From contig JBBCHK010000010.1 of the NCBI GenBank assembly GCA_037200745.1, positions 3,101-67,100 on the forward strand: a DNA stretch of 64,000 nucleotides, read 5' to 3'. Positions 3,328-64,000 of this stretch are shown here, piece by piece (the first letter of the stretch is position 1; each line of letters opens with the position of its first letter). Source of the DNA: Alphaproteobacteria bacterium. GTDB lineage: Bacteria; Pseudomonadota; Alphaproteobacteria; Rickettsiales; UBA3002. Made by a program: the position numbers and the translations under genes. The notes beneath the pieces were generated by a model that worked only from the letters and a program-made list of their open reading frames with translations, made no database searches and was not told where the DNA came from.

Positions 3328-4533
3328 ATGCAAAATTTTGACTCGCTGGGCCTGCGCCCGGCCCTGCTGCGCGCGCTCGCGCAGATGAATTTCACCACGC
3401 CGACGCCGATCCAGGCCGCCGCCATTCCCCCGGCGCTCGAGGGCAAGGATATTCTCGGCACCGCCCAGACCGGCACCGGCAAGACCGGCGCCTTCGGCAT
3501 CCCGCTGGTCTCCCGCCTGCTCGCCAACCCGCAGGACGGCGCACTCGTCATGACCCCCACGCGCGAGCTCGCCGTGCAGGTGATGGCGATGCTGCAGCAG
3601 CTGCTCGGCACCAACAGCGGCATCACTACCGCCCTGCTCATCGGCGGCGAAGCGATGGGCAAGCAATTGCGCCAGCTGCAATCCCGCCCGCGCCTGATCG
3701 TCGGCACGCCGGGGCGCATCAACGACCACCTCGCCCGCCGCACGGTGCGGCTCGAGCGCACGTCCTTCCTCGTCCTCGACGAGACCGACCGCATGCTCGA
3801 CATGGGCTTCGGCGTGCAGATCGACAAGATCATCGCCCACCTGCCGAAGCCGCGCCAGACGCTGCTCTTCTCGGCCACCCTGCCCGCCAACATCCTCAAG
3901 CTCTCCGGCAAGTACCTGAGCGATCCCGTGCGCGTCTCCGTCGGCTCGACCACGGCGCCGATCGTGCGCATCAAGCAGGAGACCATCCAGCTCGCCGAGG
4001 CCGATAAATACGGCCAGCTGCTCGTGCAGCTCCAGCAGCGCGAGGGCTCGATCATCGTCTTCGTCAAGACGAAATGGGGCGCCGACAAGATGGCGAAGAA
4101 GCTGCGCGCGATGAACCACCGCGCCGACGCCATCCACGGCAACCTTCGCCAGCGCGAGCGTGACCGCGCCATCGCCGCCTTCCGCAGCAAGGAGACCCGC
4201 ATCATGGTGGCGACCGACATCGCCGCGCGCGGGCTCGACATCCCGCATATCGAGCACGTCATCAACTACGACCTGCCGCAATGCCCGGAGGATTACATCC
4301 ACCGCATCGGCCGCACCGCGCGCGCCGGGGCGGAGGGCGAGGCGATCAACCTCGTCACCCCGGCCGACGGCAAGAAGTGGAGCGCGATCCGCCGCCTGCT
4401 CAACCCGGAAGAAAAACGCGAGCACACCCCGCGCGCCGCGCAGGGTCCGCGCGGCAACGGGCAGCAGCGCCGCCGCTACCGCCCGAACCGCCATCGCGGC
4501 AGCGACCGCCAGGCGATGCGCCCCGCCGCGTAG
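3328..4533 (+). CDS. DEAD-box ATP-dependent RNA helicase (RhlE-like); motif II reads DETD
   Basis: Q motif TPTPIQ, Walker [35 protein letters not shown], and a basic Arg-rich tail. Alternative starts at 3310 and 3316. Confidence 0.9.
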
Positions 4534-4599
4534 GTGACGTACTAATAGACGGTTTATCCGCCGGCTGCTAAAGCGCTCCTGCCAACCAAGGAGCGCGTC

Positions 4600-10950: not shown

Positions 10951-11187
10951 TTAGAAATCCATATAATTAGCTAATTTACTAATTATATACATACCTAACG
11001 ATAATTGCAAGAATCAAAATATTCCATTGTCATCCATATTGGGACCTGCATAATAGTCTGCGGGTTATGTCGAAAATCGTTAATTATCCCCCGCCACTTT
11101 CCCGGGAGCGACTTGATTTGGCTTTATAAGTTGCCATGCGCGTTATATAAGCCGGCGGAGCATGCTCATTCCAATCAGGGGGATACC

Positions 11188-24300: not shown

Positions 24301-24957
24301 ATGATCCGCTGCCAGAACCTCTCGCTCGAATACGTCCCCGGCAAACCGGTGCTGCGGCACATCAACCTGCATCTGGAGCCGGGCTCGTTCACCTTCCTCT
24401 CCGGCCATTCGGGGGCGGGGAAATCGTCGCTGCTGTCGCTGCTGTCGCTGTCGCAGAAGCCGACGGAAGGGACCATCCACCTCTTCGGGCAGGACGTCAC
24501 CGAGCTGTCGCGCGAGGAGCTGCCCGACGTGCGCCGCAAGATCGGCACCGTGTTCCAGGACTACCAGTTGCTGAACCACCTCACGGTGGCGCAGAATGTC
24601 GGGCTGCCGCTGAAGATCGTCGGCGAGAAGCCCACCGAGATCGCGCCCAAGGTGGAAGAATTGCTGGCATGGATCGGGCTCGGCGGCTTTGCCGACGTGC
24701 GGCCGCCCTTGCTCTCCGGCGGGCAGAAGCAGCGCGTCGCCATCGCCCGCGCGGTGATCAACACGCCGCTGCTCATCCTCGCCGACGAGCCGACCGGCAA
24801 CCTCGACCACGAGCTTTCGATGAAGCTGATGTACCTCTTCCGCTCGCTCAACAAGGTCGGCACGACGATCGTCTTCGCCACGCACGACGACTCGCTGATG
24901 GAAGCGTTCGACTACCCGGTGATCTACCTGCGCGACGGGCAGCTGCACCGAAGGTAG
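24301..24957 (+). CDS. ftsE: Cell division ATP-binding protein FtsE
   Basis: Walker [10 protein letters not shown], signature [14 protein letters not shown], Walker [13 protein letters not shown]. 218 aa. Confidence 0.9.
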
Positions 24958-25134
24958 TCTTGGTTTGCGCCTGTCGGCGCGTGGGGGCGAATTCAAGTTC
25001 GCTTCGCTCACTCGCCCCCAGCTGCCGGTTGACTCGCTATCGCTCGCCTCCCTCCGCTTCGCTCCGGGTCCCCTCCTTCGGCGGCCCTACGGCCGCCTGC
25101 GGGCTCGCCCTTACGGGCTACGCAGGCAGTGCGG
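24955..25134. repeat. Mosaic palindromic element, copy A (solo arm, type 2)
   Basis: Reverse-complement match to the right arm of copy D (CCCCCACGCGCCGACAGGCGC..., GGGGGCGAATTCAAGTTCGCTTCGC). Carries the conserved core CTACGCAGGCAGTGCGG at 25118-25134. Confidence 0.75.
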
Positions 25135-25830
25135 CTAGTTCGTCGCTTGCATCGTTGATGGTATCTTCCAGCCGCTTCAGCCAGCCGGCGACGTCTTCGC
25201 CGCAGGGCTCCAGCGGCGACAGGAAACGCAGCGTGGCGAGGCCGGGGGTTTTCCAGATGCTCGCCTTCGGCCAGAACCGTCCCGCATTGAGCGCGGCGGG
25301 GACGACCGGCGCGTTCAGCTCGGCGCTGATATAGCCGACGCCGGGGGTGGAACGGCCTGCGCTCGCCCGGCGGCAGGCGCGTGCCTTCGGGGAAAATGAC
25401 CAGCGTGCGGCCCAGCCCGTGATGCGCCGCCGCCTCCTCGGCGATGCGCTTGATGGTGCCGTTCTTCTTCGCGCGGTCGATGCCGATCTGCCCGCTGCGC
25501 CGGAGATACCAGCCGAAGACCGGGATGTGGTAAAGCTCGCGCCTTCAGGATGAACACCGGGTGGCCGAGGATGACCCAGAGCATCAGCGTGTCCCACGCC
25601 GACTGGTGCTTGCAGGCGACGATGCGCGCGCCTTTCAGGTGCTCCGAACCCTCGACGCGCGAATGCATGCCGGTGCTGCGCGCCAGCCAGAGGAGCGTGC
25701 CGCGCGCCCAGAAGCGGGCGACGTGCCACGTCGCGCGGCGGCTGAGCAATGCCGGCAGCGCGAGGAAGCCGACGGCGCCGGTGAAGGCGAACCAGCCGGC
25801 GAAGAAGACCAGCGTGCGCAGCTTGCTCAT
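25118..25830 (-). pseudogene. plsC: 1-acyl-sn-glycerol-3-phosphate acyltransferase (lysophospholipid acyltransferase), frameshifted
   Basis: ACKHQSAWDT (HX4D-type box), FPEGTR in another frame, and C-terminal YISAELNAPVVPAALNAG. The last codons and the stop lie inside repeat copy A. Confidence 0.75.
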
Positions 25831-26420
25831 GCGGCGGGGAAGAGAAGAAGCCGCAGCCGCGCCGCGAGGTATTTATGGTACTCGGAGAGGATCAGCCGCG
25901 GGGATTTCCGTCCTGCCACCAGTGCTCGCGCGGCGCATCGCCGGGGAAAACGGCGTCGGGGACGAACGTCACCTGCGGCAGCAGGCTGCGGAATTCGAGC
26001 AGGCTGCGCGGCATGTGGTAATGCGCGGTGATCAGGCGGATGGATTTCAGCTGCCGCTCGCGGGCGAACGCGGCGACCTCCTCGGCATTGGTCTCGGTGG
26101 TCGAGGCGAGGTGGCCGAGGACGATGGTCGCGCCGCGCGACTTGATCTGCGCGCGCTGCGCCGGCGTCGCGTGGGCGGCGAGCATCTGCGGCAGCGTCAC
26201 CTCGGCGCCGACGCCGCTGATGAACAGCACCGGGCGCCGCGCCGTCCGCCAGCATCTCGAAGCCGCGCTCGACGCGCGCCTGCCCGCCGGTCAGCACGAC
26301 GATGGCGTCGGTCGCCATCGCCGGCGGCGTCGGCTGCGCGGGGATGAAGAGGAGGAAGACGGCGAAGCCGAGGCTCCACAGCACGAGCAGCGCAAGCAGG
26401 CAGTAGCAGAGGAAACGCAT
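25827..26420 (-). pseudogene. YdcF/DUF218 family protein, frameshifted
   Basis: MRFLCYCLLALLVLW.., IVVLTGG, LFISGVG, ITAHYHMPRS, and a C-terminal ..LILSEYHKYLAARL in another frame. The stop overlaps the plsC start. Confidence 0.65.
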
Positions 26421-26430
26421 GGGGCGGAAC

Positions 26431-26990
26431 CTAGCGCGGCGCGCCCGCCCGGGCGAGGATAAATTGCGCGGCGTCGAATAAGTCGTCGCACACCGCGACG
26501 GGCGCGACCCTCGGGCGGGATGAGCTGGCTCAGCGTCTGCGCGCCTTTGCCGCAGCGCACGAGGATCGCCGGGCAGCCGGCCCTGTGCGCCGCCCTGAAG
26601 GTCGCGGCAGCATGTCGCCGACGAAGAATGTCCGCGCCGGCTCGCCGCCGAAATGCTCGAGCGCTTCAAGCAGCATCCCTGCGCCGGGCTTGCGGCGTTC
26701 GCTGGCGCGCTCCGGGGATGTCCGGCGCGAAATAGATGCGGTCGATACGGCCGCCGCCCTTCGCCACCTGCCCGCACATATGGCCGTGGATGCGCGTAAG
26801 CTCCGCCTCGCTGAGCTGACCACGGCCGACGGCGGACTGGTTGGTGCAGACGGCGATCGTCGCGCCCCGCGTCGTGCAGCAGCTTCAGCGCCTCGATCGC
26901 GCGCGGCAGGAAGACGAACTGTTCGAGCGAGAGGATGCCTTCCGTGCGGTCGCGGTTGATGACGCCATCGCGGTCGAGCAGGACCAGCAT
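26431..26990 (-). pseudogene. gmhB: HAD-IIIA phosphatase (D,D-heptose 1,7-bisphosphate phosphatase GmhB-like), frameshifted
   Basis: MLVLLDRDGVINRD (DxDG motif), TNQS..GRG, RKPGAGMLLEAL and FFVGD pieces lie in different frames. The start overlaps the ftsX stop (TGATG). Confidence 0.65.
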
Positions 26991-27879
26991 CAGTGGATAT
27001 GGTGCAGCATCGATTGCACCGTCAGCCGCGTCGCGAGCAGCGCGGTCAGCGCGATGAACACCGGCAGGGCGATGAACACCGCGACGTGGCGCAGGCCGAA
27101 ATCGAGCGGCGGCAGCACCGGCGAGGCCCAGTGATGCGTCAGCACGACGGCGGTGCCGAAGAGCACGGCCGCCAGCAGCACCCCGGCGAGCGCGCCGCGC
27201 ATGGCGAGGAAGGCGCCGTTCCACTGGAACTGGCGCAATATGTATTCGTCCGTCGCGCCGAAGAGGTGCAGCAGGCTCACCGTCTTGAAATGCAGCTTGA
27301 GGTTGGTGCGCGCGACGAGGGTGATCATCCCCCAGCACGCAGGCGACGAGCAGCGCGGCGACCAGCAGGACGATGCCCTGCAGGAACGTCACCGCCTTGA
27401 CCATGTGCTCGACCCACGGCCCCCGGTCCTCGACGCGGATGGCGTTGTCGAGCTTGCGCAGCTTCGCCGAAAGCGCGGCGACGTCGACCGTCGTGTCGCC
27501 GCCGTTGACGCGCGTGCGCACGTCGATGAGGATCGGCACCGGCAGGTCGCCCAGCGAGAAATGATCGCCCCAGCCACGGCTTGAGCAGCGCCTCCTCGTC
27601 GTCGCGGCCGAGCACGGCGACTTCCTCGACGCCGTCGGTCGCCTGCAGCTGGGCGACGGACTGGTCGATGAGCGGCCTTGCCGCATTGGCCGGCAGCTCC
27701 ACTTCGAGGACGCCGAGCACCTCGTGCGACTGCGCCGAGATGCGCGCCGGAGAGCGTCATCGCGATGGCGAGCAGCAACGCGGCGAAGCCGGCGAGGCAG
27801 CCGATCATCGCCGGCAGCATGCGCTGCGCGTCGTCGCGGGCGAAGGAATGTCGCTGGAAAGCGCCTCGGCGAGTTTCAT
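26990..27879 (-). pseudogene. ftsX: Cell division permease FtsX, frameshifted (at least 3 times)
   Basis: The N-terminus MKLAEALSSDIP.., TM1 LPAMIGCLAGFAALLLAIAMTL, the periplasmic domain and the C-terminal TM bundle (LVARTNLKLHF..LHLFGATDEYILRQF) are spread over frames. Confidence 0.75.
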
Positions 27880-32933: not shown

Positions 32934-33561
32934 ATGTTCCGTCGCATTTCTCGTTTTAGTAACATGTCTTTTCGCCGCTCCCCTCTACGCGGCGATGCCG
33001 CCGGTCGGCCAGCCGGCCCCCGATTTCACCGCGACCGATGCGCTCTCCGGCAAGCAGGTTTCGCTGCACGATTTTTCCGGCAAGCTGGTCGTGCTCGAAT
33101 GGAACAATTTCGACTGCCCGTTCGTGAAGAAATTCTATTCGACCAGCGAGATGCAGGAGCTGCAGAAGAACGCGCGCCATGAGGGCGTCGTCTGGATCAG
33201 CATCAATTCGAACGCGGTCGGCAAGGAAGGCTTCCTCGGCAGCGACGCGATCGCCAAGGCGGCGGTCACCCCTGCGCCACGCCCAGCCTTCGGCGTATAT
33301 CCGCGACGTCGCCGGCAGCATCGGCCACCCAGTACGGCGCGGGCTCGACGCCGACCATGGTCGTCATCGACAGGAACGGCGTGCTGGCGTACGAGGGCGC
33401 GATCGACAACAAGCCCTCCGCCGACCCGGCCGACATCGCCGGCGCCACGAACTACGTCACCGAAGCCCTGCGCGACCTGCAGGAAGGCAAGCCGTGAAGA
33501 TCAGCCACACGCAATCCTACGGCTGCTTACGCAATCCTACGGCTGCTTCGTGCATTATTAG
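32934..33561 (+). pseudogene. Secreted thioredoxin-fold (redoxin-like) protein, frameshifts plus a 20-bp tandem duplication
   Basis: RBS GGGGGAG. The signal peptide becomes in-frame after a T-run correction. GQPAPDFTATDALSGKQVSLHDFSGKLVVLEWNNFDCPFVKKFY. The C-terminus ..VKISHTQSYGC|FVHY is split by the duplication. Confidence 0.65.
33509..33548. repeat. Perfect 2 x 20-bp tandem duplication (ACGCAATCCTACGGCTGCTT)
   Basis: 33509-33528 is identical to 33529-33548. The unit length is not a multiple of 3, so it shifts the frame 13 codons before the stop. Confidence 0.9.
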
Positions 33562-33878
33562 TGGTGCGCGCGGTGCGCGCACGGGGGGCGATTAAAGCGC
33601 GCTGACGCGCGCCGCCCCCGCTACCGGTTGACTCGCTCACGCTCGTCTCCCTCCGCTTCGCTTCGGGTCCCCTCCTTCGCCGACCCTCCGGTCGGCTACG
33701 GGCTCGGCCTTCGGCCTACGCAGGCAGTGCGGAAGCTCAGGAGCGCGCGCGGCCACGCACGCCTCTGAGTTTCAGTTCATCCATGCGTAGCCGAATAGGC
33801 GAGCCGCGAGCGATAGCGAAGCGAGGGGGAGCGGTAGCGGGGGCACGTTGTGCCCCCCGTGCGCGTCAGCGCACCACC
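33559..33878. repeat. Mosaic palindromic element, copy B (full length, type 1)
   Basis: Starts TAGTGGTGCGCGCGGTGCGCGCACGGGGGGC and ends GCCCCCCGTGCGCGTCAGCGCACCACC. Core CTACGCAGGCAGTGCGG at 33716-33732. About 85-90% similar to copy C by eye, with indels. Confidence 0.8.
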
Positions 33879-34581
33879 AAACCCTCTCCGGCCCAGGCGG
33901 GCGTTGGTTCAGTGACCTTCTCGGCGATGGCGGCGTAGATTTGTTTCTCCGCCTCGACGACGAGGACACCGCCGAGCCAGGGGCAGACGAGCCCGCCCAG
34001 CCATTCGATGAAATCCCAGCCCCCGAGGACGTGGCGCGTCGGCGGTGCGAACAACATACTCGACGCCTCGCGCAGGGTGAATTTCGCCTCGTCAAGCAGC
34101 GTGCGCAGCTGGGCGAAGCTGTAGGGCGTGCCCTGGCCGAACGGCGTGCCGCTCCTCGCCCACGAGCCGCGACGATTGGGCACGATCAGCAGCAGCCTGC
34201 CGCCGGGAACGAGCAGCTCCCAGAAAATCTTCAGCAGCTCGTCGGGGCGTGGCTCGTATTCGAAGGCGTGCAGCATGACCACGCGGTGCAGCGCGTTGCG
34301 GGCGAAGGGCGGGCGCAGCGCGTCGGCCAGCACGGAGCGGTTGTCGCTGTGCACCGGCCAGTAGATGGCGCCTGCGACGCCGGCATCAGCGCGACGACGC
34401 CGGGCTTGCCGTCCGCCCGCCCGAGCACGCGCAGCAGCGGCGTCGCGTAGCCGATGCCGACGATGGCCTCGCCCGCATGCTGCGGCCAGGCGCGCATCAG
34501 GTGCGCGCGCAGGCGGCGCTTCACCCGGTGGCCGAGCCGCGAGGCGTAGAACTGGCGCAGGGCGATGATCTTGGGGCGCAT
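33866..34581 (-). pseudogene. Class I SAM-dependent methyltransferase (type 11-like), 1 frameshift
   Basis: MRPKIIALRQFYASRLG..IVGIGYATPLL (frame 1) joined to ..VVMLHAFEYEPRPDELLKIFWELLVPGGRLLLIVPNRRG. The last 5 codons and the TGA lie inside repeat copy B. Confidence 0.7.
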
Positions 34582-35329: not shown

Positions 35330-35756
35330 ATGCAGGCGACCCTGAATCCGCTCACGATGAGCAATGCACTTTCCCCTTCATCCAACTACTCGGCGAGCGA
35401 CATCGTGCAGACCGATTCGACGTTCGAGTCGCTCTTCGCCGACCAGAACGAGACGCCGCAGGAGATCCTCAAGGACCTGACCTCGAACGGCGTCAACGGC
35501 TACATGAAGTGGAAGATCGACCAGATGAAGGACAAAGCCACCGCGCAGGTGATGAACTCGATGGGCCTCACCAAGGCGCAGGTCGAGGGGATGCCGACCG
35601 ACCAGCGCATCGCGCTCGAGAAGAAGATCGAGTCGCAGGTGGAGCAGGAGGTAAAAATGTCCATCCAGCAGGAAATGAAGAAGAACGCCAATAGCGGCCC
35701 TCGCCGCCTTCGACCCGATGACCTCCGCCGCCATGCTGGGCGCCCAGGAAGTTTAG
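35330..35756 (+). pseudogene. Hypothetical protein (Gln/Lys/Met-rich), probable 1-nt frameshift near the 3' end
   Basis: RBS GGAGG at 35319-35323. MQATLNPLTMSNAL... Removing one C near 35700 gives ..SGLAAFDPMTSAAMLGAQEV, which stops at TAG 35754-35756 exactly at the edge of repeat copy C. Confidence 0.45.
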
Positions 35757-35760
35757 TCTT

Positions 35761-36055
35761 GGTGGTGCGCGCGTAGCGCGCACGGGGGGCGATTAAAAGC
35801 GCGCTTGACGCGCGCTCGCCCCCGCTACCGGTTGACTCGCTCACGCTCGTCTCCCTCCTTCGCCGACCCTCCGGTCGGCTACGGGCTACGCAGGCAGTGC
35901 GGAAATTCAGAAGTGCGCGCGGCCGCACGACTCAGAGTTTCAGTTCAGCCGTGCGTAGCGCCTTTAGCGGCGCGAGCCGCGAGCCGTCAGGCGAAGCGAG
36001 GGGGAGCGGTAGCGGGGGCACCACGTGCCCCCCGTGCGCGCTACGCGCGCACCAC
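35761..36055. repeat. Mosaic palindromic element, copy C (full length, type 1; perfect 29-bp terminal inverted repeats)
   Basis: 35762-35790 (GTGGTGCGCGCGTAGCGCGCACGGGGGGC) is the exact reverse complement of 36027-36055. Core at 35886-35902. Internal nested hairpins. Confidence 0.85.
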
Positions 36056-36510
36056 TAAAAGTTCCGGCCAGGGCCGGAACCGGAACCGGGCTGGTAGGCC
36101 GCCGGGCCGGAAGGCGGCATGGGGCTCGGCGCCATCAGGCCGGGGTTGATGCCCGGGGCGGGCTGCGGCGCATCGCCCGGCGCGGGCGGCGGCGATTGCT
36201 GGACGGATTGCGTGCGCACGGCCGGCGACGGTGACGGCGGATGCTGTTATCGGTGGTGGCGTGCCGGTGGTCTTCGGCTTGGCGACCGACCAGCCCTGTG
36301 GCCCATGCAATCGGAGAAGAGCGTCAGCAGCTCGGCGTTGCGGTCGCTCTGCGAGACCTGCGCGCCCGGCGGCAGCACCGTGTTGATGTTATGCTCGGCC
36401 TGGTCCTGGCAGTCGCCGTGGTCGCGGTCGTAGCGCGTCTGGATCTGGCTCTGGGCGAGGCAGCCCGCCAGCAGCAACGGCAACAGGAGGATGAGTTCCC
36501 TAGACGGCAT
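36055..36510 (-). pseudogene. Lipoprotein with Pro-rich tail downstream of fliJ, frameshifted
   Basis: Lipobox LLLAGC. After ~70 aa the sensible continuation (..KPKTTGTPPP.. then ..QSPPPAPGDAPQPAPGINPGLMAPSPMPPSGPAAYQPGSGSGPGRNF) requires 2 frame changes. The stop lies at the edge of repeat copy C. Confidence 0.45.
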
Positions 36511-39271: not shown

Positions 39272-39308
39272 AAAAAGCCCGCCCGTAGAACGGCGGGCTT
39301 TTTTATTG
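39272..39308. terminator. Bidirectional Rho-independent terminator between ctrA and cheW
   Basis: AAAAAGCCCGCC-cgtagaac-GGCGGGCTTTTTTATT. A-run and T-run flank an 8-bp GC stem, and the cheW stop lies in the T-run. Confidence 0.75.
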
Positions 39309-41208: not shown

Positions 41209-41297
41209 GACTTGCCTTGCCGGTTCTGCGTCCGTTTTGAGGTTGTGGATATTACAGGGCACTGCGCTATTGTGAAGCGTTATCCACAAGGCAAGTC
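41209..41297. promoter_or_regulatory. Split inverted repeat containing a consensus DnaA-box sequence upstream of the cheA-like gene
   Basis: GACTTGCCTTG (41209-41219) and TTGTGGATA (41243-41251) are mirrored by TTATCCACAAGGCAAGTC (41280-41297). TTATCCACA equals the canonical DnaA box. Confidence 0.3.
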
Positions 41298-41303
41298 CGG
41301 TTT

Positions 41304-41605
41304 TAGTGGTGGCTGTGCCACGGGGGTCGAAGACGCCCCCGCTACCGGTTGACTCGCTATCGCTCGTCTCCCTCCGCTTCGCTCCGGGTCCCCTCGTTCG
41401 CTTCGCTCCGGCTCGCCTATTCGGCTACGCACGGATGAATTGGAACTCAGAATATTCTCAGCGCTTCCGCACTGCCTGCGTAGCCCGTCAGGGCGAGCCC
41501 GGAGGCGGCCGGAGGCCGCCGAAGGAGGGGGAGCGGAGCGGGGGCGAGTTCGCGAAGCGAACTTGAATTCGCCCCCACGCGCCGACAGGCGCCAATCAAA
41601 AACTA
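41304..41605. repeat. Mosaic palindromic element, copy D (full length; type-1-like left end, type-2 right arm)
   Basis: TAGTGGTGGCTGTGCCACGGGGG...CCCCCGCTACCGGTTGACTCGCT... Inverted core CCGCACTGCCTGCGTAG at 41467-41483. The right arm is the reverse complement of copy A. The chpT stop sits at its last 3 nt. Confidence 0.8.
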
Positions 41606-42268
41606 GCTCGCCGCCGCGACGGCGAGCTGGTGCTGTGTCGCGACGATCTCAAAGAGGTCACTGTGTGCCTCCACGGCGAGCGTCGCGCCGACTTCTTCGG
41701 CGATCTTGCGGGTCAGGAACGGCTGGGCGCTTTTCGGCGACAGCATGGAATCGTCGCCCTGGCCCTTGAGGATGAGCGCGGTCTCCGGGTCGAGCTTGAT
41801 GGTCTCGCCCTTGCCGCTCAGCGTGACGATCTTGTCGCCCGCCGCATTGGTGCCGATGCGTACCGAGATGGTGCCGCCACGGATCATCGCCGCCGCGGCG
41901 ATGACGAACATGTTGAGGATCAGCCGCGCCGTTTTCTGGCTGATCGAGATGCCGGCGGCGTCGGTATGGGTGTCGGGCCAGTCGAGCTTGACCTTGCTGC
42001 CCTCGAAGAAATTGATGGCGAGCTGTTTCTTGTCGGCCAGGCAGGCCTCGCCGGAATCCGACACGCGGCCGTAGGCCTGGCGGTAGAACTGCAGGCGGTT
42101 GACCGCCTCGTGGGCGCTGGAGAGGATGAGCTGCACGGCCTCGTGCTGCATGTCGAAGCCTTCGTCGCCCAGGAACTCGGCGCCGTTATTGACCGCGCCG
42201 ATCGGGCCCGTCAAATCGTGGCACAGGCGCGTGCACAGCATTTCCGCAAGTCTGGTCTCGGATACCAT
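41603..42268 (-). CDS. chpT: Histidine phosphotransferase ChpT
   Basis: LAEMLCTRLCHDLTGPIGAVNNGAEFL (phospho-His in the CHDL context) plus a degenerate HATPase-like C-terminal half. 221 aa. Confidence 0.85.
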   Translation of the reverse strand: MVSETRLAEMLCTRLCHDLTGPIGAVNNGAEFLGDEGFDMQHEAVQLILSSAHEAVNRLQFYRQAYGRVSDSGEACLADKKQLAINFFEGSKVKLDWPDTHTDAAGISISQKTARLILNMFVIAAAAMIRGGTISVRIGTNAAGDKIVTLSGKGETIKLDPETALILKGQGDDSMLSPKSAQPFLTRKIAEEVGATLAVEAHSDLFEIVATQHQLAVAAAS

Positions 42269-42360
42269 CGGGCCACTTTCTAACGATTCGCGTCAGGTTT
42301 CGCCATGATTTTTATGCTAGGCCCGAAATCTGAAGGAATCGTTAAACTTTTAGGCTTTTT

Positions 42361-42939
42361 TTAGGCTTTTCCCGGCAGGATGCGCGATTCGACGAGCGTC
42401 GCCAGCGCGTGCAGCCCGGTCTGGTGCGCTTCCTGGATATGTGCGGTGATAAGCGACGGGACCGCCAGCAGAAAATCGACATTTTCCTTCTGCTGCGCGC
42501 CCTTCTCGCCGGTGAACAGGGCGGTGGCGAGCCCCTGCGCCTTCGCCGCCTTCAGCGCGGCGAGGATGCTCGGGCTCTTCCCCGAGGTGGAGAGGGTGAT
42601 GAGCACATCGCCCTTTTTCCCCAGCGCCTCGACCTGGCGGGAGAAGACCTGCTCGTAGCCGTAGTCGTTGGCGATGGCGGTGAGGATGCCGGAATCGGCG
42701 GTGAGCGCGATGGCGGCGAGCGCGCGGCGGTCGTCGACGAAGCGGCCGACGAACTCGCCGGCGATGTGCATCGCGTCGCAGGCGCTGCCGCCGTTGCCGC
42801 AGAAAAAGAGCGTGCCGCCATCGCCGAGCGCCTGCGCGCACTGATCGGCCAGCGCGGTGAGCGTCGCGCCGCATTGCGCGAAGAACCCGTCGAGCGCCTC
42901 GTGGTGCCGGTCGCGGATGGTGTGAAGCAGCGCGTCCAT
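42361..42939 (-). CDS. gmhA: D-sedoheptulose-7-phosphate isomerase (SIS domain)
   Basis: FFCGNGGSACDAMHIAGEF, ALTADSGILTAIANDYGYEQVF, LITLSTSGKSPS, AHIQEAH. Confidence 0.85.
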   Translation of the reverse strand: MDALLHTIRDRHHEALDGFFAQCGATLTALADQCAQALGDGGTLFFCGNGGSACDAMHIAGEFVGRFVDDRRALAAIALTADSGILTAIANDYGYEQVFSRQVEALGKKGDVLITLSTSGKSPSILAALKAAKAQGLATALFTGEKGAQQKENVDFLLAVPSLITAHIQEAHQTGLHALATLVESRILPGKA

Positions 42940-43622
42940 CAGCCGCGCAGCGCCCGGATGTTCTTGGCGTAGGCCGTCGCGCCTTGCCCGCCTTTGCCGA
43001 ACACGGCCGAGCCGGCGACGAGCACGTTCGCCCCGGCCGCCACCGCCTCGCGCGCCGTGCCGGAGTTGATGCCGCCGTCCACCTCGAGATGGATGCGGCG
43101 CCCGGATTTGCGGATCATGGTGCGCAGGCGGCGGATCTTCTCCAGCTGGCTGACGATGAAGGACTGGCCGCCGAAGCCGGGATTGACCGTCATCACCAGG
43201 ATGAGGTCGACCGCATCCATGACGTAGTCGAGCACCGTCTCCGGCGTCGAGGGGCAGATGGAGACGCCCGCCTTCTTGCCGAGCGACTTGATCTGCTGCA
43301 GCGCGCGGTCGAGATGCGGCGTCGCCTCGGCATGCACGGTGATGATGTCGGCGCCCGCGCTCGCGTAGCTTTCGATGAAGGGCTCGACCGGCGCGATCAT
43401 CAGGTGGACGTCGAGGGTGAGCTTCGTATGCGGGCGGATGGCGGCGATGACGGCCGGGCCGATGGTGAGGTTGGGCACGAAATGCCCGTCCATCACGTCG
43501 ACATGCACCCAGTCGGCGCCGGCCTTGCCGATGGCAGTGACCTCTTCGCCCAGCTGCGCGAAATCCGCGGAGAGGATCGAGGGCGCGATGAGAAGCTTGC
43601 TCATGAGGCCGATGCGTAGCAT
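42939..43622 (-). CDS. rpe: Ribulose-phosphate 3-epimerase
   Basis: [45 protein letters not shown]. Alternative start at 43604 (MSKLLIAPS). Confidence 0.9.
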
Positions 43623-43639
43623 CGCCTTATGATAAAGTG

Positions 43640-43745
43640 AAGCGCTTCGCGCTTGGGGGGCACTAACGTGCCCCCGCTACCGCTCCCCCTCGCTTCGCTA
43701 CGCTCGCGGCTCACCTATCCGGCTACGCAAGACAGTGCGGCCAGC
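43640..43745. repeat. Mosaic palindromic element, copy E (solo arm, beta-type)
   Basis: GGGGGGCACTAACGTGCCCCCGCTACCGCTCCCCCTCGCTTCGCT...GGCTACGCAAGACAGTGCGG matches the reverse complement of the right arm of copy B. Confidence 0.6.
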
Positions 43746-44999
43746 TCAGCATTTAGTAAAACACGCCGCGAAGAAACCGTCCATGCCGCCATCGCCGGCA
43801 CGCATGTCGAGGCGGGTGCGCAGCATGCCATCCGCAATGCATTCCGCCGGGAGCCCCTGCGCGGGAACGAGCCGCGCGTCCTTGTGCGTGTCGAGGAACC
43901 ATTGCGCCTGCGCTTCGCCTTCCTCCGGCTCGAGCGAGCAGACGCAATAGACCATGCGCCCGCCCGACTTCAGCCAATCCCACGCGCGCGAAAGCATTTT
44001 GCGCTGGAGCGCGGCAAGCTCGGCGATGTCGCGCTCGCCGGTCAGCGCCAACACTTCCGGGTGGCGGCGCCATGTGCCCGTCGCGCTGCAGGGCGCGTCG
44101 AGCAGGATGGCGTCATAGGGCGTCGCGGGCTGCCATTCCAGTATGTCCGCCGTGATGCATTCGGCGGAAAGCTTCATGCGCGCGAGATTCCCGGCGAGCA
44201 GGCGCATGCGGCCCGGGCCACGGTCGAGCGCGGTGACGAGCGCACCGTCGCGCGCGAGCTGCATGGTCTTGCCGCCGGGTGCTGCGGCGAGGTCGAGCAC
44301 GCGCCGGCCGCGCACATCGCCGAGCAATCGCACGGGGTAGCTCGCCGCGATGTCCTGCACGAAGAATGCGCCCTCGGCGAAGCCGGGCAGCGCGGCGACC
44401 GATTCATGCTCCGGCGGCAGGCGCCATATCTGTCCGTCGAGCCGCGCGCCGGACGGCATCGTCGCCGGTTGCGGCAGGTTGAGGTCGAGCGGCGGGCGTT
44501 GCGCGGCGGCTTCGGCGACGGCGGCGGCGATCGCGGCGCCGTAACGCTGCTCCCAGCGCGCACGGAAATGCCCGGGGATATTGTGCAGCGCTTCCGGCAG
44601 CGCCGGCTTTTCGCGTGCGGCGCGCTGCAGCACGGCGTTGAGAAGCCCGGCGAGGCCGGCGTCCTTGCCGCCCTTGATCGCCTCGACGGTTTCGTTCACC
44701 GCCGCGTGCGCCGGCGTGTCGAGCAGCAATAGCTGTGCGAGGCCGATGCGCAGCGCTTGCGTGACGCGCGTCCGTTTCACCGGAAGCGGCTTGTCGAGAT
44801 AGCGCGCGATGAGCGCATCGAGCTGGCCGAGGTGACGCAGCACGGCGAGCGCGAGCAGCATGGCGAAGCGCGCATCCGCGGAATCGCCGGCGAGCGGCAG
44901 GCTTGCGGCAGCCTCGTCGAGCGTGCGTTGCTGCGTCAGCACGGCGTCGAGCAACGCGATGGCTTCGCGGCGGACGGCGGATGGGGCGATGCGGCTCAT
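43746..44999 (-). CDS. rsmB: 16S rRNA (cytosine-C5)-methyltransferase RsmB/Sun family
   Basis: NusB-like N-terminal domain, VLDLAAAPGGKT SAM motif, DAILLDAPCSATGTWRRHPE and YCVCSLEPEEGE catalytic Cys motifs. Start chosen at ATG 44999 (MSRIAPSAV). Confidence 0.85.
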   Translation of the reverse strand: MSRIAPSAVRREAIALLDAVLTQQRTLDEAAASLPLAGDSADARFAMLLALAVLRHLGQLDALIARYLDKPLPVKRTRVTQALRIGLAQLLLLDTPAHAAVNETVEAIKGGKDAGLAGLLNAVLQRAAREKPALPEALHNIPGHFRARWEQRYGAAIAAAVAEAAAQRPPLDLNLPQPATMPSGARLDGQIWRLPPEHESVAALPGFAEGAFFVQDIAASYPVRLLGDVRGRRVLDLAAAPGGKTMQLARDGALVTALDRGPGRMRLLAGNLARMKLSAECITADILEWQPATPYDAILLDAPCSATGTWRRHPEVLALTGERDIAELAALQRKMLSRAWDWLKSGGRMVYCVCSLEPEEGEAQAQWFLDTHKDARLVPAQGLPAECIADGMLRTRLDMRAGDGGMDGFFAACFTKC

Positions 45000-58981: not shown

Positions 58982-59003
58982 CGCGTCGCGTTCCACTCAA
59001 GAC

Positions 59004-59038
59004 AAAAGCCCGCCGGGAGACCGGCGGGCTTTTTATTT
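59004..59038. terminator. Bidirectional Rho-independent terminator after pal
   Basis: AAAAGCCCGCCGG-gaga-CCGGCGGGCTTTTTATTT. Perfect 9-bp GC stem with A and T tracts on both sides. Confidence 0.8.
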
Positions 59039-62027: not shown

Positions 62028-63971
<1,944 letters not shown>

Positions 63972-64000
63972 TTGGCGCGCTACGCGCGCGGGGGGCGATA
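63972..64000. repeat. Mosaic palindromic element, copy F (only the first ~29 nt; truncated by the window end)
   Basis: TTGGCGCGCTACGCGCGCGGGGGGCGATA, directly after the ftsH TAA, resembles the type-1 terminus GGTGGTGCGCGCGTAGCGCGCACGGGGGGCGATTA. Confidence 0.5.

Follow-up and report, generated by a model that had tools for sequence, protein, structure and literature searches.

A lineage-restricted mosaic repeat family lies flush with gene stop codons in a compact Rickettsiales genome

How a family of intergenic repeats comes to end where its neighbouring genes end is the question raised by a 64,000-nt stretch of contig JBBCHK010000010.1 (positions 3,101 to 67,100; hereafter the window) from the Rickettsiales metagenome-assembled genome (MAG) GCA_037200745.1. 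At six loci the window carries hairpin-rich copies, ~120–320 bp long, of one mosaic repeat family, here called copies A to F. The original prediction, made from the sequence of the window, held that the termini of these elements coincide with, or supply, the stop codons of flanking genes, and listed eight such boundaries. All eight were borne out when stop codons were assigned by tracing the reading frame through the G+C content of third codon positions (GC3) and by comparison with homologues, those of the redoxin, hypothetical and lipoprotein genes after frame repair. The association proved to be stronger than claimed, since the rsmB stop at copy E, absent from the earlier list, makes nine of nine: every boundary that faces a gene 3′ end is flush with, or overlaps, the stop of that gene. 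Three further boundaries face gene 5′ ends (the left ends of copies D and E and the right end of copy F), and none of these is flush. Copies were defined by repeat finding, BLAST and alignment, their nine unit ends were aligned, and the contig was extended by 10 kb on each side of the window so that 84 kb were examined, L002 denoting sequence that runs on past the window end.

Three of the copies are full palindromes of ~300 bp in which two units stand head-to-head: copy B (33559–33881, plus strand), copy C (35757–36057, plus strand) and copy D (41301–41602, minus strand). Copy B consists of an alpha unit, a centre and an inverted beta unit, and opens with the redoxin stop TAG; copy C occupies the entire gap between two convergent stops; and copy D has non-identical, mosaic ends, with an alpha unit at the right whose end type is that of copy A (93% over 60 nt). 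The other loci carry solo half-units, namely copy A (24958–25134, plus strand), copy E (~43627–43749, plus strand), which fills the rsmB–rpe spacer and at whose outer end TAA (43633–43635) adjoins the rpe start, and copy F (plus strand), which begins at 63972, runs to the window end at 64000 and is complete as L002 11945–12055, upstream of glmM, where it terminates in CTACGCAGGCAGTGCGGAAAT. The solos are all of the alpha type, and their inner ends break off at differing internal positions.

Alignment of the nine units, which are 115–180 nt long, reveals a common plan. The outer part comprises a T-rich tract, a T-R-R triplet (R, purine), a spacer of 2–11 nt and hairpin 1, and the inner part a run of five to seven G residues opening hairpin 2, a run of five to seven C residues closing it, GCTACCG, optional modules and the inner motif GCTACGCA, followed by GGCAGTGCGGAAGCTCAG in alpha units or by TGGATGAACTGAAACTCAG in beta units. 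Copy A, for example, displays a T-run with TGG, hairpin 1 (24967–24980), a G/C-clamped hairpin 2, a GACTC-containing arm and the inner motif as GCTACGCAGGCAGTGCGG. The T-R-R triplet reads TAG in three units, TAA in two, TGA in one and TGG in three. A two-hairpin fold is common to all nine unit ends (z-scores −2.9 to −5.1), and the stem sequences vary among them (GTGCGCGC/GCGCGCAC, GTGGC/GCCAC, GCGCC/GGCGC and AAGCGC/GCGCTT). Copy B as a whole folds as a single long hairpin (−208 kcal/mol, z −10). The terminal inverted repeats (TIRs) of copy C span 32 nt with 97% complementarity (35759–35790 and 36027–36058), those of copy B are similar to them, and the end types of copy D are mixed.

The fit between these units and the neighbouring genes is close at each locus (stops of minus-strand genes are given in plus-strand letters). 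At copy A, the ftsE stop TAG (24955–24957, plus strand) directly precedes the element, and the stop of plsC on the minus strand (CTA, 25118–25120) lies 15–17 nt inside the inner end, within the inner motif; both stand in clean frames. At copy B, the redoxin stop TAG (33559–33561, plus strand) directly precedes TGGTGCGCGCG, and the methyltransferase gene on the minus strand ends in a clean frame at TCA (33866–33868), in the loop of the right terminal hairpin 1. Copy C is bounded by the stop of a hypothetical gene (TAG, 35754–35756, plus strand), 8 nt before its hairpin 1, and by that of a lipoprotein gene with the tail ..GRNF (CTA, 36055–36057, minus strand), 2 nt from its right hairpin 1. The chpT stop (CTA, 41603–41605, minus strand, clean frame) adjoins copy D; that of rsmB (TCA, 43746–43748, minus strand) falls within the last nucleotides of the inner-end homology of copy E (GCTCAG); and ftsH ends in a clean frame at TAA (63969–63971, plus strand), 3 nt short of copy F's hairpin 1. 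Homology across the nine unit ends places the start of the conserved T-run and T-R-R triplet 0–7 nt behind the stop, and that of hairpin 1 at 2–10 nt. For copies A, C and D the original prediction had put the boundary at the TAG itself; the stops do adjoin these copies, and the homologous sequence begins in that interval of 0–7 nt beyond them.

Six of the nine stops lie in clean frames, and those of the redoxin, hypothetical and lipoprotein genes need frame repair because of assembly indels. Many genes of the window are split by such small indels, which may be noise of the assembly or genuine decay, often 1-nt shifts in otherwise well-conserved genes (examples at 25340, 33250–33320, 33494, 35690, 36210–36290 and in the open reading frame (ORF) at 25827–27686; genes including plsC, redoxin, lipoprotein, lysA, grpE and rph). 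The hypothetical gene takes a 1-nt correction near 35690, which a switch in GC3 supports, and the lipoprotein gene two compensating shifts, in agreement with its GC3 trace. Two repairs are needed for redoxin: a missing G is restored near 33494, and a 20-nt tandem repeat is reduced by one copy. The repaired tail, ..KPVKISHTQSYGC(L/F)VHY, agrees with the ..TPVKLANTQPYGCNIKYAY of a relative (protein tails are given up to the stop); along the window it reads ..EGKP/VKISHTQSYGC..VHY, and the relative's protein runs on as ..DGTPVKLANTQPYGCNIKYAY. A TGA at 33495–33497, considered as the redoxin stop from the GC3 trace, was ruled out by the homologue tail. The tandem duplication itself, CGCAATCCTACGGCTGCTT[A/C], lies 10 nt upstream of copy B in the 3′ end of the redoxin gene (33510–33549, plus strand, 19/20 identical). 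Besides doubling the TQSYGC motif it puts the last four redoxin codons out of frame, and as assembled the redoxin frame would run into copy B.

Have the elements altered the proteins whose genes they adjoin? The original prediction raised the possibility that C-termini were remodelled, and comparison with homologues bears this out for two proteins and not for four others. FtsE has its native length (GQLHRR, relative GQLHRSRR), as does ChpT in comparison with its homologues; the C-terminus of RsmB ends where those of 27 aligned relatives end; and redoxin, two residues shorter than the protein of the relative, also counts as native in length. Element-encoded C-terminal residues are confined to PlsC and the methyltransferase. 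PlsC tracks its relative as far as ..DEL, after which AALPA, encoded by the element, replaces the terminal GG (relative ..TAELGG). In the methyltransferase the element encodes the tail LVVR after a conserved tryptophan, a position beyond which all homologous methyltransferases carry a variable tail of 7–27 residues.

The state of these sites before insertion can be approached through relatives, the closest of which in the collections are distant (best non-self methyltransferase match 68% identical, best Rpe match 70%). Logan contig L008, from another organism, is syntenic over ~12 kb and devoid of the elements. In it, plsC and ftsE are convergent with stops that overlap by 4 nt (TTAG, 10989–10992), and the methyltransferase and redoxin genes are convergent with stops that overlap by 7 nt (TCAATAA, 2917–2923). 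It therefore appears that the spacers of both pairs were ancestrally close to zero, although at 62% methyltransferase identity L008 is too distant for its two element-free sites to count as true empty sites. On the contig of the closest relative, a 4-nt gap follows the methyltransferase gene. Overlapping convergent stops occur both in the relative (TCAATAA, TTAG) and in the genome of the window (CTAG, L006 5825–5828), an extreme packing at gene ends, and element-free convergent pairs on the same contig as the copies have stop-to-stop gaps of −4 (CTAG), 2, 3, 6, 50, 66, 78, 112, 113, 155 and 393 nt. In 25 other alphaproteobacteria the rsmB–rpe spacer has a median length of 57 nt and never falls below 17 nt; here it is ~123–141 nt, depending on the rpe start codon chosen, and copy E (~120 nt) fills nearly all of it.

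Sites A and B, and probably C and E, thus offered almost no spacer before insertion, and any tolerated insertion there had to touch stops, such that the flush ends are in part forced. Near-zero spacers do not explain, however, why the elements occupy minute targets instead of roomier gaps, nor do they account for copies D and F, which are flush with the upstream stop and leave tens to more than 100 nt on the promoter side. Given the gap sizes seen in element-free pairs, flush ends would be a rare outcome if every base of spacer were equally likely to be hit.

[quoted passage not shown] Integration would take place at an A/T-containing site, either a TA inside or just after the stop or a T-tract behind it; in a tightly packed genome of high G+C content (64% in the window) such sites would be found mainly at gene ends and convergent overlaps. 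A target of this kind fits the T-run and T-R-R triplet present at every unit end; two of these ends, the left ones of copies D and E, have no gene reading into them, so that run and triplet stem from the element or its target and not from the genes. An element end that opens with a purine after the TA would keep TAG or TAA at the junction and leave the C-terminus at its native length, and the junction triplets of the lipoprotein (TTT-TA/G), ftsH (CAC-TA/A) and redoxin (TAT-TA/G) genes have this form. With a junction triplet of TGG, or one in another frame, translation would continue for 4–5 codons into the element and stop in the hairpin loop or the inner motif. When copy C is excised with a TA duplication, the sequence ...GTT TAG TC TTA AAA G... 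is restored, in which two convergent stops lie 2 nt apart, an arrangement resembling the architecture found elsewhere in the contig. Copy C is the only copy whose pre-insertion sequence is exactly rebuilt; plain excision of copies A and B leaves one gene stopless. Solo half-units would be full palindromes that underwent deletion up to a point tolerated by selection on the adjacent gene, with plsC and rsmB fused to inner sequence as a result: the inner ends of solos are heterogeneous yet fused to gene ends, which argues for secondary deletion of half a palindrome within bounds set by selection. Two sites also suggest that the T-run is native flank rather than element. The chpT gene ends in a 10-bp coding-end hairpin (41605–41628, minus strand) with the stop at its foot, followed by TTTTT and then copy D, and the last codons of the lipoprotein gene, just upstream of its stop and copy C, form the hairpin GTTCCGGC-CCTG-GCCGGAAC with TTTT (36058–36082); in both cases the T-run completes the hairpin into a terminator-like site.

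Several observations weigh against insertion at TA sites in or behind stops. An intact TA...TA duplication flanks no full copy, the end pairs being TA/CA in copy B, TG/TA in copy C and TA/TG in copy D. The left ends of copies A and C and the right end of copy D share TAG-TYTT(T)-G-R, so that both TAG and T-run could be part of the element and not of the target. That all five stops at outer ends are TAR is only marginal (p about 0.07) against the background, as TAG or TAA terminates 58% of the reliable genes here and TAG alone 34%. The sample is limited to nine ends, with no copy found outside this MAG and neither a target logo nor an empty site at the DNA level, and element junctions may be one base off owing to assembly indels. 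The ancestral states are approximate, as the nearest relative is only 62–68% identical in the methyltransferase, and no transposase or RAYT gene was seen among the called genes of the 84 kb. The original prediction had offered two alternatives, elements that carry outward-facing TAG/CTA ends and elements that target TA(G)-containing sites and remodel the C-termini. The nine ends cannot fully separate the two; the evidence leans toward insertion at or after native stops, with the remodelling slight. A bolder version, which we consider unlikely as it stands, is a stop-codon-seeking transposon that would integrate into the TA of TAA or TAG, especially at a YTAR shared by convergent genes, and rebuild each stop from the duplicated TA and its own terminal purine.

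Could the elements instead bring the stops with them? If the TIR housed a T-run and TAG or TAA, insertion without sequence preference into last codons or tiny spacers would be tolerated, since stops would be supplied in several frames. The T-run and T-R-R triplet are indeed conserved at all nine ends; moreover, TAGTCTTGGT is identical at the left ends of copies A and C, stops in the other frames occur within about 45 nt (TGA or TAG in the loop, and GATTAAAG), and plsC and the methyltransferase gene terminate at internal element stops. However, all five outer-end stops are in frame with the T-R-R triplet or an adjacent TAG, where a random phase would be expected to give about one-third, four proteins retain their native length, and at the ends of chpT and the lipoprotein gene the T-run has the appearance of native flank. 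On balance, carried stops are a doubtful explanation. It is a little harder still to credit that elements landed anywhere in 3′ intergenic DNA and that a deletion bias then removed the spacer, the flush position marking the limit set by selection and not a target. This would suit a compact genome in which convergent gaps overlap or measure 2–6 nt and in which elements fill whole intergenic regions at copies C and E, and it would explain why solos A and E likewise meet or overlap stops at their truncated inner ends, which are not true termini. Yet the ftsE/plsC and methyltransferase/redoxin spacers are already about zero in the element-free relative, gaps of 50–393 nt persist elsewhere in the contig, and on the 5′-facing sides of copies D and F the remaining spacer ranges from tens of nucleotides to more than 100 nt.

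Two further accounts, insertion at TA sites aside, bear on why the coincidence exists at all. Hairpins might have been retained at stops by selection, as REP-like 3′ stabilizers, as stallers of terminating ribosomes or as barriers to convergent transcripts. Hairpin 1 lies 2–10 nt after the stop, inside the range of up to 15 nt for ribosome stalling by Escherichia coli REPs given in the account of Liang et al. (2015) in PMC12306157; the structure is conserved while the stem sequences vary; and three of the sites lie between convergent genes. The hairpins nevertheless have no U-tract behind them, and relatives keep the same gene pairs without the family, which is thus not needed for those genes, and we deem a selected origin of the pattern improbable. 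Lastly, mis-assembly or frame-shifted ORF calls in a noisy MAG could in principle create spurious coincidences, given the many frame-shifted genes of the window and the repair needed at three of the nine stops. Against this stand the six stops in clean frames, the agreement of repaired tails with homologues, and an independent assembly, Logan contig L007 (SRR28211701), which is 100% identical over 1,937 bp (window 41563–43499) and includes the junction between chpT and copy D in identical form. The association is not a by-product of assembly frame-shifts, and an artefactual origin is very hard to believe.

What the elements might do at the RNA level is a separate matter. The original prediction suggested that they could act as terminators or 3′-untranslated-region stabilizers for convergent genes. 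The canonical layout of an intrinsic terminator for the incoming transcript is absent: behind the hairpins comes a G-run instead of a U-run, and the T-run is upstream. A terminator scan flags only two structures, the chpT coding-end hairpin with its TTTTT and a minus-strand inner stem of copy C. An Rfam search returned nothing at the gathering threshold in the window and nothing at E ≤ 1 across copies B and C. By analogy with REPs, a 3′-untranslated-region role, be it as stabilizer or in the stalling of terminating ribosomes, is plausible. Elsewhere, at 39272–39308 and 58998–59034, the window has two near-identical bidirectional terminators (an A-run, a GCCCGCC hairpin and a T-run) that are 81% mutually complementary; this genome thus uses canonical intrinsic terminators where spacers exist.

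Are comparable repeats known from other bacteria? REP, BIME and REPIN elements are mobilized by RAYT Y1 transposases. They are short, G+C-rich imperfect palindromes of about 20–40 nt, a format shared by hairpins 1 and 2 at all nine unit ends here, and the family also resembles them in the alternating orientation of hairpins, which builds mosaics and long hairpins, and in its position after gene 3′ ends. The GT[AG]G head of REPs has a parallel in the GTAG that flanks hairpin 2 in six of the nine units (GGAG or GCAG in the others) and in the GTGG that flanks hairpin 1 in five of the nine; the format here, GGTAGCGGGGGCAC..GTGCCCCCC, may be set beside the GGTAGCGCCGGGCC..GCCCGGCG of Stenotrophomonas maltophilia (Nunvar et al., PMC2817692). 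In E. coli a large share of REPs are located within 15–20 nt of a stop codon (PMC12306157), and REPs near stops are described there, after Liang et al. (2015), as causing stalling of terminating ribosomes and mRNA cleavage. Units of the present family differ in being much longer (115–180 nt), with extra modules and an inner motif, and in having nine of nine ends flush and several stops inside the element, a tighter arrangement than in descriptions of REPs.

The family equally recalls the TA-targeting MITEs, such as the Correia (NEMIS) elements of Neisseria, RUP and others of IS630 type, in its size (100–300 bp), its TIRs, the hairpin formed by the whole element and the presence of TA at the junction of several ends, although TA occupies one end only of copies B, C and D and its partner reads CA or TG. 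The Correia end TATAGTGGATT has TAGTGG in common with the ends TAGTGGTG here. Targeting of TA is documented for RUP (PMC2229807). Unlike in these MITEs, different end types can occur within one copy of the present family (D), solo half-units are common, and similarity does not extend beyond a hexamer. A behavioural parallel is found in Coxiella burnetii, whose QMITE1 and QMITE2 ends overlap functional gene 3′ ends by 1–50 bp (ubiB 2, kdgK 1, ruvB 6 and recN 7 bp) and, EnhC being an example, can donate C-terminal residues together with the stop (PMC5896051). Neither the host nor the sequence is related, however, and such overlaps involve a minority of copies there, as against every 3′-facing boundary here. 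CIR elements of Caulobacter and other alphaproteobacteria, as described in PMC2229807, are intergenic, exceed 100 bp and consist of inverted-repeat arms, with GANTC, the CcrM site, within an arm. The present family shares with them, by description only, alphaproteobacterial inverted-repeat arms and a GACTC in the GTTGACTCGC arm module of four of the nine units, but GANTC is lacking in the other five. An enrichment of GANTC in the elements was considered and rejected, as they hold 5 of the 129 sites in the window against about 3 expected by length. Across the window as a whole GANTC is strongly under-represented (129 sites, against 277 ± 16 from shuffles).

This is accordingly a new, lineage-restricted family, whose mosaic architecture joins REP-like heads with MITE-like TIRs; its behaviour is already known for REPs and bacterial MITEs and is here unusually clean. 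No further copies were found in the 10 kb added on each side of the window beyond the remainder of copy F, and no parent insertion sequence with matching ends was seen within the 84 kb. A 31-nt core pattern gave no matches in the genome contigs of GTDB representatives, and the concatenated six-frame peptides of copies B and D yielded no element-derived ORFs elsewhere. Searched with an nhmmer profile of the nine units, 1.4 Mb of sequence from 80 rpe loci of alphaproteobacteria, Caulobacter, Brevundimonas and Phenylobacterium among them, yielded only the copies of this MAG itself. In a scan of metagenome contigs the inner motif matched twice, once within a coding region and once in sequence without element-like structure, and both matches were taken as chance. 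The former, a 21-nt match at 4524–4544 of the unrelated contig L004, lies in a coding sequence that, from its translation, is presumably PorP/SprF-like; it illustrates that G+C-rich motifs of 20 nt give chance hits in databases of such size.

If this reading of the family is broadly right, selfish or semi-domesticated palindromic repeats can colonize a genome almost without intergenic DNA by settling on gene ends, at times donating the last codons and the stop. For annotation, terminal residues and stops beside repeats in such genomes may be element-derived, and assemblies break at these repeats, as exemplified by Logan contig L007, which ends inside one. By analogy with REPs, the hairpins that sit 2–10 nt behind stops could tune the expression of ftsE, chpT, ftsH, rsmB and other genes. 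Were the stop-codon-seeking transposon real, it would represent a distinct target-site strategy, in which an element prises apart overlapping genes harmlessly and so finds a safe haven in a genome almost without spacer.

A few minor observations concern the genes around the copies. Between copy D's left end and a CheW-like gene, a sigma-70-like promoter match (TTCACA-16-TAATAT) lies at 41249–41276 on the minus strand, and judging from this match copy D may sit just upstream of the promoter of that gene. The hypothetical gene at 35330–35756, between pdxH and copy C, has a very high GC3 and no Pfam match; on the contig of the closest relative no counterpart is called, and a gap of 190 nt is found there. 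Finally, glmM as called starts right at copy F's inner end (L002 12056–12160), which adds ~35 residues too many to the protein; its true start probably lies ~100 nt downstream, after a stretch rich in A/T.

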